Shown here: positions 2,706 to 11,026 of the stretch, in pieces | Numbering within the stretch: the stretch's first letter is position 1 | Layout of the letters: each line of letters opens with the position of its first letter | Source of the DNA: a virus | Lineage: Duplodnaviria > Heunggongvirae > Uroviricota > Caudoviricetes | Virus record (IMG/VR): IMGVR_UViG_2690316285_000015 | DNA: 11,026 nucleotides | Direction: 5' to 3' (one strand) | Position numbers and translations under genes: made by a program | Notes under the pieces: generated by a model | Told to the model about the DNA's origin: nothing | The model's database searches: none | Seen by the model: the letters and a program-made list of their open reading frames with translations, nothing else

Positions 2706-3260
2706 ATGAACCCTAAAATCACTTGGAGATTAATTCCAAATTCAAAACATTACTACGTATCTGAAAATGGCGATGTTTACAATGATAAAACAAAACAGTA
2801 TATAGCTACGAAAAACCCATCTAATGGATACAAAAAAGTTTCTATTAATGGCAAATCACTATATGTACATGTTTTGGTTTGTACTTTATTCAATGGTGCT
2901 AAACCCATTGGAGGAAGATACACTGTAGATCATATCGACCGCGATAAAATGAATAACAAAGCAAAAAATTTACGTTGGGTAACTCAGAAGGTTAATAATT
3001 CCAATAGAAAGCATAAAGGTACTCGTACTCAAAAGCTTACTCTAAAGCAATGGTTAATGATTGTTGGAGAGTACCTTAAAGGACAATTATCTCAATATGC
3101 AATCACTAAATGGTTTTTAAATCAAACTGGTATTAATATTTGCCCTCAGAATATAGGTAAGTTATTCAAAGGTACTACCTATTCAAAATGGTACACAACA
3201 TATCTTACGAATAAGCAAAGACAAAGAATACAAAGCCTAACCATTCAACGTAAACCATAA
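2706..3260 (+). CDS. HNH homing endonuclease (HNH-AP2 type, phage freestanding endonuclease family)
   Basis: SLYVHVLVCTLFNGAKPIGGRYTVDHIDRDKMNNKAKNLRWVTQKVNN matches the conserved core of phage HNH homing endonucleases (H..L.. then HID..K.NN...NLR.VT...N); AAGGACG upstream of ATG. Confidence 0.8.
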   Translation: MNPKITWRLIPNSKHYYVSENGDVYNDKTKQYIATKNPSNGYKKVSINGKSLYVHVLVCTLFNGAKPIGGRYTVDHIDRDKMNNKAKNLRWVTQKVNNSNRKHKGTRTQKLTLKQWLMIVGEYLKGQLSQYAITKWFLNQTGINICPQNIGKLFKGTTYSKWYTTYLTNKQRQRIQSLTIQRKP

Positions 3261-3381: not shown

Positions 3382-3843
3382 ATGGCAAAAACCTATTCAA
3401 CTTTTGATAACAGAAACATAAAAGCACTAATTAGCCAGTACAAGCTATATAAAGATATCCCATGCGAAGACATCAAGAACATCATGAAGGACTCAGTAGC
3501 TAAACTTAAAGTGAGAGATAAGATTAGTGTATATGATGTGTTTGCAGTATTGAGTAATGAAGATGAATTACGGAATGATTTACTATTCAATACTATCAAT
3601 GCTATTAAAGTACAACAGAATAAGAAACAAGTAAAAGAACGTATGATCAGGTACTATGGGGCAGCGATCACGGATGCAGCAAAACGAATAGAGCAGTATA
3701 TGTTGGCACACCCAAACGCACTGCCAGCACCAGTATATGGACAAAGAACACTAACATATAAAGAGTTTGGTAAACTATTGGAACTACAAAAACAAGGTGA
3801 CTTTATTGATGACATGATCGAGTACTTAAAGGGCTTGCGTTAA
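3382..3843 (+). CDS. Hypothetical protein (153 aa)
   Basis: Long open frame with consistent coding composition; no recognisable motif. Confidence 0.5.
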   Translation: MAKTYSTFDNRNIKALISQYKLYKDIPCEDIKNIMKDSVAKLKVRDKISVYDVFAVLSNEDELRNDLLFNTINAIKVQQNKKQVKERMIRYYGAAITDAAKRIEQYMLAHPNALPAPVYGQRTLTYKEFGKLLELQKQGDFIDDMIEYLKGLR

Positions 3844-3889: not shown

Positions 3890-4306
3890 CGGCAAAAAAA
3901 GCCCCTGAAACCCGCTATTTACCATCAATACGGCAACTAAGTATAGAGATACGAAATCCATTCCATTTCATTCCATGTATTTCTTTCTCTATCAGTATTC
4001 CAAGAAACTGTGACTTGCGTCACGAATACTACTCGTCGTGAACTCCTCGTAGTATTGGTTAGTAACGTTGCGTTTTTCTCGCCAGTACTCGAAAACCCGC
4101 AAGGCGTTACTACTCGCTTTGCTCGATAGATGTTAGTACAGCAAATGAAGTACCTAAAGTGAATTGGTAAGTACGACATGCCCCGCCAGTTCCACAACTC
4201 TCGCTCTGGTCATTTCCACTACTATGATGCTATTGGATAGCTACATAAAGTACTGGATCAAGTAGGCATTTTTTGTGTACAAAGAGGGAATTAAGAGAGG
4301 GATACC

Positions 4307-5050
4307 ATGAACAGAAAACAATTCATCCAGTCGCATGGTGCTACTTGTAGTAACTGGACTTGGAGTTGGTCATTTGTGAACCACGACAAGAAAATGGTTA
4401 TCTTTGGTGCATGGGATGTACAAAAAGAGCAAGAAAGATCAGTCATTCTGAGGGAGCGGTGGAAAACCAAAGTTGTGGAGGGAAAGGAAAGAAAAAATCT
4501 TGGATATATTCAAGCTATTGAACACATTCAATTGATAGCTGAAGGTTATGAGCTTTACACGTTTGATATGGAGCAGGGACGAAACGATGAGAATAGAGAT
4601 GTAGCTGTTATCAAACGGTTCACTCCAAAACTTGAAAAACGTTACCTTCGGAAAGAAGGAACAGTTTGGTATGCAGACTTTTTACCTAATCCATTTCCAG
4701 ATGAAATTACCTCACCTGAAAACTACGCTGAGGGTGCAAAAAAGCAAGTTACAGTAAACTCCTACGAGCGTGATCCAAAAGCACGACAGGCTTGTATTGA
4801 CCATCATGGTACTTCCTGCGGGTGTTGTGAGTTTAACTTTGAGAAAGTCTATGGTGAACACGCCAAGGGCTTTATACACGTTCATCATATCAAACCGCTA
4901 CACACAGTAGGCGAGGATTACGAGGTAAATCCAATTACTGATATGGTTCCACTTTGTCCAAACTGTCACGCAATGGTACATCGCGGTAACGAAGTATTAA
5001 GTGTCGAAAGTTTAAAAGCACTGTTGTTTAAAGACAGCAATAAAATTTGA
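4307..5050 (+). CDS. HNH nuclease with McrA-like C-terminal HNH domain and an N-terminal domain of unknown type (possible modification-dependent restriction-like enzyme)
   Basis: C-terminus CGCCEFNFEKVYGEHAKGFIHVHHIKPLHTVGEDYEVNPITDMVPLCPNCHAMVHRG has the C-x2-C ... HH ... N ... C-P-N-C-H arrangement of McrA-type HNH domains; AGAGAGGGA SD-like element just upstream of ATG; ends at TGA. Confidence 0.7.
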   Translation: MNRKQFIQSHGATCSNWTWSWSFVNHDKKMVIFGAWDVQKEQERSVILRERWKTKVVEGKERKNLGYIQAIEHIQLIAEGYELYTFDMEQGRNDENRDVAVIKRFTPKLEKRYLRKEGTVWYADFLPNPFPDEITSPENYAEGAKKQVTVNSYERDPKARQACIDHHGTSCGCCEFNFEKVYGEHAKGFIHVHHIKPLHTVGEDYEVNPITDMVPLCPNCHAMVHRGNEVLSVESLKALLFKDSNKI

Positions 5051-5132
5051 ATTTATTTTAGACTTGATACGACATACTTGAAAAGTTATGAATACAATAT
5101 GCTTTAAATTAGACATGTAAGTTGAGAGAAAA

Positions 5133-5606
5133 ATGAGCATAACAACAATAGCAGCTACATATAAAGATGTGTTAACTATTGCTTTTTCGGCGTTGTCATT
5201 TATTATTGCATGTACTTCCTTATACTTCTCCGGTAGGGCAGCATGGCATGATAGATCAAGGCTAAAAATAACAGCTGACCTCGTCTACGAGTCTTTTGAT
5301 GAGGAACCTTATAAAATCGAGGTGATAGTGATCAATGTTGGTAGGCGTGATGCAGTTTTGGAAGGGATGCTTTGCCATTATGAAAAAGGCATTAGGAGCC
5401 ATTCATCTCCAAAAGAGAGCATTGTTATTAAAGAAAAGCAAAGAAAAAAATTTGAATTGGTAAGCTCAGACTTAGTCACGATAGATAATGAATGTGATAT
5501 TTGTCATTTAGAAGATATAACTATTTTAGATGTGGAGGGGAATGAACATAAAATCCCTAACTCTCACAGACTCATTGCATTACTTAAGCAAGATAAAAAG
5601 ACTTAA
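5133..5606 (+). CDS. Membrane-anchored hypothetical protein (one N-terminal TM helix, about 120-aa soluble domain)
   Basis: Hydrophobic segment LTIAFSALSFIIACTSLYF near the N-terminus; lies 82 bp downstream of the HNH nuclease gene on the same strand. Confidence 0.5.
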   Translation: MSITTIAATYKDVLTIAFSALSFIIACTSLYFSGRAAWHDRSRLKITADLVYESFDEEPYKIEVIVINVGRRDAVLEGMLCHYEKGIRSHSSPKESIVIKEKQRKKFELVSSDLVTIDNECDICHLEDITILDVEGNEHKIPNSHRLIALLKQDKKT

Positions 5607-5686: not shown

Positions 5687-5862
5687 TTTACGAGATGATA
5701 AGAATGGAATTTAACACCTACGATGGTGATATATATTACTTCCTCTATTTATATAGGAGGTACGAAAGGGGGAGTACTTTAATGAAGACCTTATAAATCT
5801 TAATGTTGAGATGTTAGTTATAGCGGTGAGGATACCCCACCGTCTATTGGGAGTTGTGGACT

Positions 5863-6531
5863 CTAATTAGAGAAAACGAATAAGTTATTCATGTCCTTTT
5901 TCAAGGTTGCATGTGCTTCTATTAAACTATCAAATGTATCTACTAATAACTTTCCATAGCTGACATTGTAATGATATCTATCATGAATGTCATTTATATC
6001 AAAACTTATCGCTTCCCTCAATGTTCCTAAAGCAATTTGATTACTGAAGAAATAATTATTGAATATAGCTTCATCTTTTGGCGATACTTTCCAAAAGGTA
6101 AGTGATTGCAATTCGCTTTTTAATGAGGCTAACTTAATGTTTAATAGATCGATAACTTCTCGTTCAGTTTTAACTAAATGTGCGAAATTTTTTGGTTCTA
6201 TATCTGGTTCAGTATTGTTAAGGTTGCATATATTTTCATATGTTTTCAACATCTCCAACGAAAAAAGATCGCAATTAGTCCAGAACTTAGTAACTTGATT
6301 TAAAGCATTTTCCTTTATTTTAGTTTGAAACCAATTTTTAGCGTTCCATGCTGCATATAGGGCTGCTCCAGCCATAATGAGATTGGCAATAGAACTAACC
6401 CAGTCACTAACCGATCCCCACTCGAAACCTTCAGAACCAACAAAGAGTGATTTTATTAGTACTAAAATTACAACAACCAGTAATACTGCTACGGTCGATA
6501 AAAGAACGATATTTAATTTTCTACAATCCAT
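5863..6531 (-). CDS. Membrane protein (222 aa; two N-terminal TM helices and a cytoplasmic C-terminal domain)
   Basis: Hydrophobic segments IVLLSTVAVLLVVVILVLI and VSSIANLIMAGAALYAAW; AGGAA about 11 nt upstream of the minus-strand ATG; stop TAG. Confidence 0.55.
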   Translation of the reverse strand: MDCRKLNIVLLSTVAVLLVVVILVLIKSLFVGSEGFEWGSVSDWVSSIANLIMAGAALYAAWNAKNWFQTKIKENALNQVTKFWTNCDLFSLEMLKTYENICNLNNTEPDIEPKNFAHLVKTEREVIDLLNIKLASLKSELQSLTFWKVSPKDEAIFNNYFFSNQIALGTLREAISFDINDIHDRYHYNVSYGKLLVDTFDSLIEAHATLKKDMNNLFVFSN

Positions 6532-7167: not shown

Positions 7168-7719
7168 ATGAACATTGATAATTGGGCAATACCGATAACA
7201 AGTTTGGGTGGTCAGTTGCTGGGGGTTGAGTTGGTCAGCCATGTAGAACGCGAGGGAATCAGGCAGATCGGCCTATGGGAAGAAGAAGTACTTCATGGGC
7301 AACTAATGCTTATTGAAAGCAAGGCGGCATGGTTCAGGGATAACGGTTTGTATTGTGTGATTACTACTGGCCGTGGTGAACCATACGAGTACTTACCATT
7401 CCTTCGGCAGATGACAAGGGATATGAAAGTACATAACCAGCAGTGGCTTGATGATCTCGGTGTACATGGTGGTTCTGCTATTCCTCTGGTTACAGGTGAT
7501 TTCGAGGTTGCCCGATTAAATAGAAGGTACACAGAAGAGAACATTGACCGTCTGATCTTTCCAGTACTCATAAAAAGCATTCGCCAGTACTGCGAGAAGG
7601 TGATCGTACCCGTCAGAGATAAAACGTATTACCCAATTCTCAGAGAGGCCGGTGTATGGGCGGTACAGGGAGAGTTCAGGCCAATGCGTTTTGAGCAATG
7701 TGAAAAATTAATAGGATAA
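7168..7719 (+). CDS. Degenerate EAL-like domain protein (YdiV/RflP-like; catalytic motifs not conserved)
   Basis: AIPITSLGGQLLGVELVSHV parallels the start of EAL domains (QPIV...G.EAL.R) with ELV in place of EAL; WLDDLGVHGGSA parallels the DDFGTG(Y)S motif in degenerate form; C-terminal AVQGEF parallels the (V/L)QG(Y/F) motif. At 183 aa it is shorter than catalytic EAL domains. Confidence 0.55.
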   Translation: MNIDNWAIPITSLGGQLLGVELVSHVEREGIRQIGLWEEEVLHGQLMLIESKAAWFRDNGLYCVITTGRGEPYEYLPFLRQMTRDMKVHNQQWLDDLGVHGGSAIPLVTGDFEVARLNRRYTEENIDRLIFPVLIKSIRQYCEKVIVPVRDKTYYPILREAGVWAVQGEFRPMRFEQCEKLIG

Positions 7720-9249: not shown

Positions 9250-9475
9250 AGATATCTCGAACCGTAATTATATCCATCATCAAATGCTTCATTGGTTATT
9301 ACCAGTTCCCTGTAAAATTTCTNNNNNNNNNNNNNNNNNNNAGATATCTCGGTAAAATGCCGCCGCCTTATGGTGCATTTCATTATGAAACAGCACCTGA
9401 TGAGAAATTTTACAGGGAACTGGTAATAACCAATGAAGCATTTGATGATGGATATAATTACGGTTCGAGATATCT
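9250..9475. repeat. 73-bp perfect inverted repeat flanking an assembly gap
   Basis: Left arm 9250-9322 is the exact reverse complement of right arm 9403-9475; between them lie the N run and 61 bp of unique sequence (9342-9402). The palindromic octamer AGATATCT occurs at 9250, 9342 and 9468. Confidence 0.7.
9323..9341. other. Assembly gap (19 N)
   Basis: Run of n characters; true length and content unknown. Confidence 0.95.
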
Positions 9476-9669: not shown

Positions 9670-10998
<1,329 letters not shown>

Positions 10999-11026
10999 AG
11001 TGGTCAACAAAAACTGGCCACCGAGT

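Follow-up and report, generated by a model that had tools for sequence, protein, structure and literature searches.

The subject of this analysis is an 11,026-nucleotide (nt) stretch of viral DNA (the window; IMG/VR record IMGVR_UViG_2690316285_000015, Caudoviricetes), in which the plus-strand gene at positions 4307–5050 encodes a protein of 247 amino acids (aa) that joins an N-terminal domain, a linker, and a McrA-type HNH nuclease domain. With moderate confidence, this protein is predicted to be a single-gene, prophage-borne Type IV restriction endonuclease that carries a new sensor domain. In the proposed mechanism, the feature of foreign DNA bound by the N-terminal domain would most probably be a modified base missing from a Dam+/Dcm+ host, and its binding would position or license the C-terminal HNH domain to cut nearby; like TagI and McrA, the nuclease domain would probably act as a dimer. 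The 157-aa single-pass membrane protein encoded downstream (5133–5606, plus strand) would be the product of a neighboring cargo gene, and likely serves as an independent membrane-anchored exclusion or defense factor. Both open reading frames (ORFs) had been called on the same strand in an earlier reading of the window (the original prediction), and the calls are borne out by the ORF list and by the conservation of their homologs.

The nuclease domain and the N-terminal domain

The HNH (ββα-Me) nuclease domain, with its Cys4 zinc site, occupies positions 4760–5050 on the plus strand. Within it, aa 171–226 (nt 4817–4984) match the Pfam family HNH (PF01844) with an expectation value (E) of 3.3e-6, which is better than the curated cut-off. 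Among PDB sequences, EcoKMcrA (6ghc) aligns to aa 141–229 only (E 3.4e-5) and the ScoMcrA (5zmm) alignment spans aa 144–234; EcoKMcrA is the top match of the nuclease domain by sequence and by structure. Ten residues of this domain, C171, C174, H191, H193, H194, C217, N219, C220, H221, and H225, are invariant in 57 aligned homologs, a set that takes in both the cysteines of the zinc site and the residues of the H-N-H motif. The McrA-type HNH motif recognized at the C-terminus from the outset is therefore sound, and the protein possesses the intact HNH/ββα-Me motif with zinc site expected of Type IV enzymes that combine a reader with an HNH domain. The predicted catalytic site is intact, and the gene appears to require no conserved partner or methyltransferase.

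A protein search recovered more than 900 homologs, nearly all of which are full-length proteins of about 240–260 aa; their hosts include Enterobacterales, Pseudomonas, Verrucomicrobia, Planctomycetes, Bacteroidota, and Chloroflexi. The best E-values reach 1e-159, which rules out chance. These proteins are currently annotated only as "HNH endonuclease," and PADLOC recognizes them through the nuclease half only, since its mREase_IV assignment rests on that part and the Type IV models cover only the C-terminal 90 or so residues. In an AlphaFold2 model of the full protein, both domains are confident and the mean predicted local distance difference test (pLDDT) score is 83.6. The linker between them (aa ~126–151; 4682–4759, plus strand) is modeled with low confidence, with pLDDT below 50 at aa 138–151, and is disordered in the model.

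The N-terminal domain (aa 1–125; 4307–4681, plus strand) is β-rich and belongs to an undescribed family, and it is proposed to be a DNA or modification sensor. Across the same 57 homologs, G11, C14, N16, W17, W19, S20, W21, S22, F23, F33, G34, W36, W52, H73, and W121 do not vary. The original prediction had described this region as tryptophan-rich and unassignable, a description that fits the distinct domain of about 125 aa, with its invariant tryptophans, found here. Searches of Pfam, NCBIfam, PHROGs, PADLOC, and PDB sequences gave no match to aa 1 to ~140, even when a profile was used at E up to 10, and no membership in a recognized reader family (SRA, EVE, NEco, SBD, wH, or DUF3427) was found in Pfam, NCBIfam, or PDB sequences. 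The remote-homology and structure comparisons that had been suggested for this domain yielded a confident model of the domain alone (pLDDT 89.9; predicted template modeling score 0.83) and no significant Foldseek match, the top hit being MspJI at E 0.19. In structural terms, the domain comes closest, always below significance, to the SRA-like readers found in modification-dependent nucleases. It is reasonable, though unproven, to describe the modeled fold as PUA/SRA-like.

Domain architecture provides stronger evidence on the role of the N-terminal domain than fold comparison does. A profile search with the domain returned 319 representatives of clusters formed at 50% identity. Among the 32 longer members, the domain is followed by HNH in 19, by NOV_C (a PD-(D/E)XK-type nuclease domain) in three (P0148, P0158, and P0171), and by MUG113 (GIY-YIG-like) in one (P0178); P0158 contains an additional DUF3427-like stretch that falls under the Pfam cut-off. 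The domain also occurs in tandem with established readers, either with a true SRA domain in the order N-terminal domain, SAD_SRA, HNH_2 (P0242), or with EVE, which lies between the N-terminal domain and HNH in P0185 and precedes both in P0139, P0162, and P0175. The modular design of reader plus nuclease is documented for modification-dependent endonucleases, and the architectures observed here follow the same logic (PMC6765204). As these arrangements are typical of Type IV enzymes and the nearest structural neighbors are SRA-like, a DNA or modification-sensor role is favored for the domain. The sensor role suggested for it earlier is thus favored, and no match to a known reader family emerged.

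Several observations weigh against a Type IV enzyme that recognizes a modified base through this domain. An hhalign comparison of the domain with a SAD/SRA profile, made from relatives of the P0242 SRA domain, gave a probability of only 0.2%; one architecture, vWA followed by the N-terminal domain (P0191), has no nuclease; and no biochemical or phage data, or characterization of any other kind, was found in the literature for any family member. The null profile comparison indicates that the domain is not a member of the SRA family, and canonical SRA (SAD/SRA, PF02182) was rejected on this result together with the lack of a Pfam match. P0242, in which the domain stands beside a true SRA (E 3.8e-45), likewise identifies the two as distinct modules. 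Lastly, the frequent pairing with true SRA or EVE readers suggests that the N-terminal domain may read a feature other than a base modification, as the sulfur-binding domain of ScoMcrA does.

This last point leads to an alternative, in which the domain senses backbone phosphorothioation, a particular structure or sequence of the DNA, or a protein made by the phage, and the enzyme is a defense nuclease rather than a classical modification-dependent one. The repeated placement beside SRA or EVE within one polypeptide mirrors the SBD-SRA-HNH order of ScoMcrA, where the extra domain reads sulfur, and both the absence of a sequence relation to SRA and the vWA fusion without a nuclease are compatible with it. 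The sole NCBIfam match, which is far under its cut-off and involves the nuclease part only, is to a model for restriction of phosphorothioate DNA. However, the nearest structural neighbors are base-flipping SRA-like readers (none significant in Foldseek), dnd or ssp genes do not recur in the flanks of the homologs, and in most members the N-terminal domain is the only non-catalytic domain and must supply target discrimination alone. This alternative is considered unlikely.

The closest described enzymes to the predicted Type IV endonuclease are the SRA-HNH enzyme TagI, the EVE-HNH enzyme VcaM4I, EcoKMcrA, and ScoMcrA. The SRA-HNH modification-dependent endonucleases include TagI, ScoA3IV/Sco5333, and TbiR51I (PMC6212794; PMC6765204). 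TagI, at 285 aa, is similar in size and shares the order of an N-terminal β-rich reader-like domain, a short linker, and a C-terminal HNH, and a cognate methyltransferase is absent in both cases; the difference lies in the N-terminal domain, which here has no Pfam SAD_SRA match, has the negligible hhalign probability given above, and in P0242 exists besides a true SRA. EVE-HNH enzymes, such as VcaM4I and TspA15I (PMC7897488), follow the same logic of a reader joined to HNH, and EVE is fused to the present N-terminal domain in several relatives. EcoKMcrA has a NEco-HNH architecture (PDB 6ghc; PMC7145662), but its alignment is confined to aa 141–229, and its NEco specificity domain shows no sequence relationship to aa 1–125. 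ScoMcrA (SBD-SRA-HNH; PDB 5zmm/5zmn) stacks several sensor domains before HNH, as do P0242 and P0185, yet it is 561 aa long, has no sequence match beyond HNH, and nothing in the present protein points to phosphorothioate reading. EcoKMcrA is likewise prophage-borne, on e14 in Escherichia coli K-12. Two further leads were rejected: the B-strain enzyme EcoBLMcrX or its upstream ORF as an E. coli relative, as EcoBLMcrX belongs to the BisI family and ECD_02033 is an 81-codon regulator, and the END nucleases described in a preprint, which have a different architecture.

A solitary gene and its variable neighbor

The genomic surroundings of the family were compared at 44 full-length nuclease loci from many phyla, all outside the prophage lineage of the window and taken from species-representative genomes. 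No conserved neighbor was found across these loci, and only among close relatives do the flanking ORFs have a family in common. The Pfam and PADLOC families that recur in the flanks are GajA/AriA/Old-type ATPases, GajB/UvrD, BrxC, DRT-type helicases, WYL, and integrases, and some of the homologs are surrounded by defense genes. Among the listed families, the 150 neighbors of 38 loci include one C5 methylase, and family scans of the window and of the Shigella sonnei loci described below detected no methylase. The lack of a shared neighbor and the single C5 methylase fit a solitary defense gene that has neither a partner nor a cognate methylase, as is characteristic of Type IV enzymes composed of a reader and HNH.

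The downstream 157-aa protein contains one hydrophobic segment (aa 13–31; mean Kyte-Doolittle hydropathy 1.97), in agreement with the single transmembrane helix first assigned to it. Its family consists of 32 clusters, all from Enterobacterales, and conservation across these clusters establishes the ORF as a real gene. No family match was found in any library scanned, and a search of its profile against PDB found nothing. The gene is confined to relatives of the prophage or to remnants of it.

The original prediction had proposed that the nuclease and this membrane protein form a two-gene defense or abortive-infection module. In such a module, the role of the membrane protein could be, for example, to sense infection or to gate the nuclease. 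When loci of the 157-aa family are combined with IMG/VR loci, the gene directly follows a nuclease ortholog on the same strand in nine distinct loci (the window, L087, L092, L094, L098, L103, L110, L116, and L122), with a gap of about 80 bp in the window, L087, L092, and L094 and a 4-bp overlap in L098, L110, L116, and L122. No terminator was found between the two genes in the window, the 157-aa family occurs almost solely near this nuclease family, and its transmembrane helix is unusually conserved, all of which is consistent with a joint function. Nevertheless, the 157-aa gene is missing from all 44 distant loci, and every co-occurrence is in one prophage lineage at one position, meaning that these are not independent observations. 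Even within this lineage, nuclease orthologs of 72–92% identity lack the 157-aa gene after them in eight loci (L007, L008/L105, L108, L115, L119, L121, L125, and the E. coli type L089/L102); in L121, L125, L119, and L115, orthologs of 79–92% identity are followed by a 273-aa soluble protein, a protein with three transmembrane segments, or nothing. In three further cases, the 157-aa gene is present without an adjacent nuclease (L096/L097 from Serratia, L118, and L089). The identities of the two proteins to their counterparts are also discordant, with 93% for the nuclease vs. 66% for the 157-aa protein in Citrobacter koseri and 81% vs. 83% in Enterobacter ludwigii, which implies recombination between the genes. 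The two-gene module is therefore not supported, and a functional module of this kind is held to be improbable. Instead, the two genes are often found side by side in a single variable cargo region, though a lineage-specific functional link between the proteins is possible.

The prophage cargo slot and its upstream block

The mobile-element location given in the original prediction is accurate: the window is part of an insertion sequence (IS)-interrupted prophage that runs from a serine integrase to terminase genes. An identical nuclease protein is encoded in hundreds of S. sonnei assemblies (e.g., HE616528.1), where the gene lies between a 644-aa serine integrase adjoining yeaG and the terS/GpA terminase and portal genes. 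This region carries IS elements, which interrupt the terminase/portal module, and the window edges (1–44 and 10993–11026) are the termini of IS2 and IS911; together, these insertions and ends identify the element as a decaying prophage. The window also contains a run of 19 undetermined bases (N) at 9323–9341. Near-identity DNA searches of phages, plasmids, and complete E. coli genomes found only the IS ends and one partial match. The presence of intact, identical copies in so many S. sonnei assemblies means that the host tolerates the gene. S. sonnei carries the Dam and Dcm methylases, so if the gene is expressed, N6-methyladenine in GATC and 5-methylcytosine in CCWGG would be unlikely targets.

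The nuclease and membrane protein genes are inside a stretch of about 9 kb from the integrase to terS, and the nuclease gene occupies a cargo slot, flanked by the integrase end on one side and the terminase on the other, in which defense-type genes are exchanged. In relatives of the prophage, the same slot contains a PADLOC mREase_II protein, a DpnII-MboI-fold nuclease, Tlde1-domain proteins, or mSLOG/DUF488/DuOB genes. The trio of mSLOG/DUF4326, DUF488, and DuOB lies in the cargo region at L087:7536–9243 and L092:9965–11651. In two E. coli loci (L089:7759–9279 and L102:7350–8939), the nuclease stop codon abuts the start of a gene for a 263-aa (L089) or 286-aa (L102) protein. The 263-aa protein matches PADLOC mREase_II with E 5e-62, which places two putative modification-dependent nucleases in tandem at this locus.

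Residence in a prophage with a lambda-type (Nu1/GpA) terminase, along with C-terminal matches to generic PHROG HNH families, could also be explained by an HNH protein of the phage life cycle, either a terminase-associated cos-cleavage factor (of the HK97 gp74 type), which had been named as the outcome that would overturn a defense role, or a homing endonuclease; this is very improbable, given that terS lies 5.2 kb downstream with at least nine ORFs on both strands in between, that the nuclease, with two domains and 247 aa, is double the length of terminase HNH factors, which have a single domain, that a related Serratia prophage with terS/GpA has no nuclease homolog in this region, that the full-length family is missing from 50,697 deposited phage genomes and most members are in non-phage chromosomal contexts, and that a separate homing-type gene is present at 2706–3260. 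That second HNH gene, on the plus strand of the same prophage arm, is unrelated to the first and carries HNH_3 and NUMOD4 (PADLOC HEase; PHROG 59).

Directly upstream of the nuclease gene is a conserved non-coding block of 267 nt (4040–4306, plus strand) with a core of about 110 nt (~4062–4180). The block is 88–91% identical in loci whose nuclease proteins are 73–93% identical, is more conserved than the flanking genes, and contains single-base insertions and deletions that indicate that it is not coding. Searches recovered the core from 31 E. coli genomes and from 21 IMG/VR contigs, upstream of differing cargo genes in related islands, and the three E. coli cores inspected belong to three islands (thiM, ffs, and the yeaG prophage). 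In the window and these three islands, the core lies about 220–250 nt past a fast-evolving gene of 153–174 aa and before the variable cargo. This gene, which has no assigned function, is at 3382–3843 (plus strand) in the window and at L100:4289–4765, L101:4283–4750, and L102:4238–4762; its products are barely alignable (E 1e-12 to 0.004), whereas the downstream DNA is about 80–90% identical.

A hairpin drawn for the block is 89% paired, compared to 41–64% in slid controls, and four of its pairs are altered on both sides, although the hairpin was derived from the same sequences used to score the pairing and the paired changes may represent few events. No thermodynamic signal was found in the block (minimum free energy z-score about −1 on both strands), and RNAalifold returned only a trivial helix. 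A known RNA was rejected as there is no Rfam match. The block may serve as a promoter, a leader, a small RNA, or a recombination anchor.

Other genes surround the pair. A 222-aa single-pass membrane protein is encoded convergently to the 157-aa gene (5863–6531, minus strand), and diverged homologs occur in related cargo regions, including three tandem copies in E. ludwigii (L092:7111–9073). What is left of a truncated small ORF ("MIRMEFNTY...") lies at ~5695–5790 (plus strand), and the ORF is intact (85–106 aa) at the same position in L092, L115, L116, L119, L121, and L122. Further downstream, a 183-aa protein (7168–7719, plus strand) weakly matches, far under the cut-off, the C-terminal portion of NCBIfam PRK11596, a c-di-GMP phosphodiesterase; its E. 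ludwigii homolog carries Pfam EAL, and the gene is split by an IS21-family element in some S. sonnei genomes.

Implications for modification-dependent defense

A broader proposal is put forward tentatively. The N-terminal domain may represent a new and widespread class of DNA-feature sensor, present in many phyla, fused to HNH, PD-(D/E)XK-like, and MUG113 domains, and unrelated in sequence to SRA, EVE, NEco, and SBD, and its specificity may differ from that of known readers, for instance by being directed at a hypermodified base or a backbone modification. Separately, the nuclease of enterobacterial prophages may come in a cargo cassette that has a conserved and structured non-coding element at its head.

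Modification-dependent nucleases serve both as phage defenses and as tools for mapping DNA modifications, and every new reader domain has so far yielded a new specificity. The family described here is large and compact (~245 aa) and is present in common Enterobacteriaceae, including a globally spread S. sonnei lineage, and its setting locates a defense-cargo slot in a family of serine-integrase prophages. Knowing the target of the tryptophan-rich domain would extend the Type IV repertoire by one class of sensor, and could also account for host resistance to particular modified phages.
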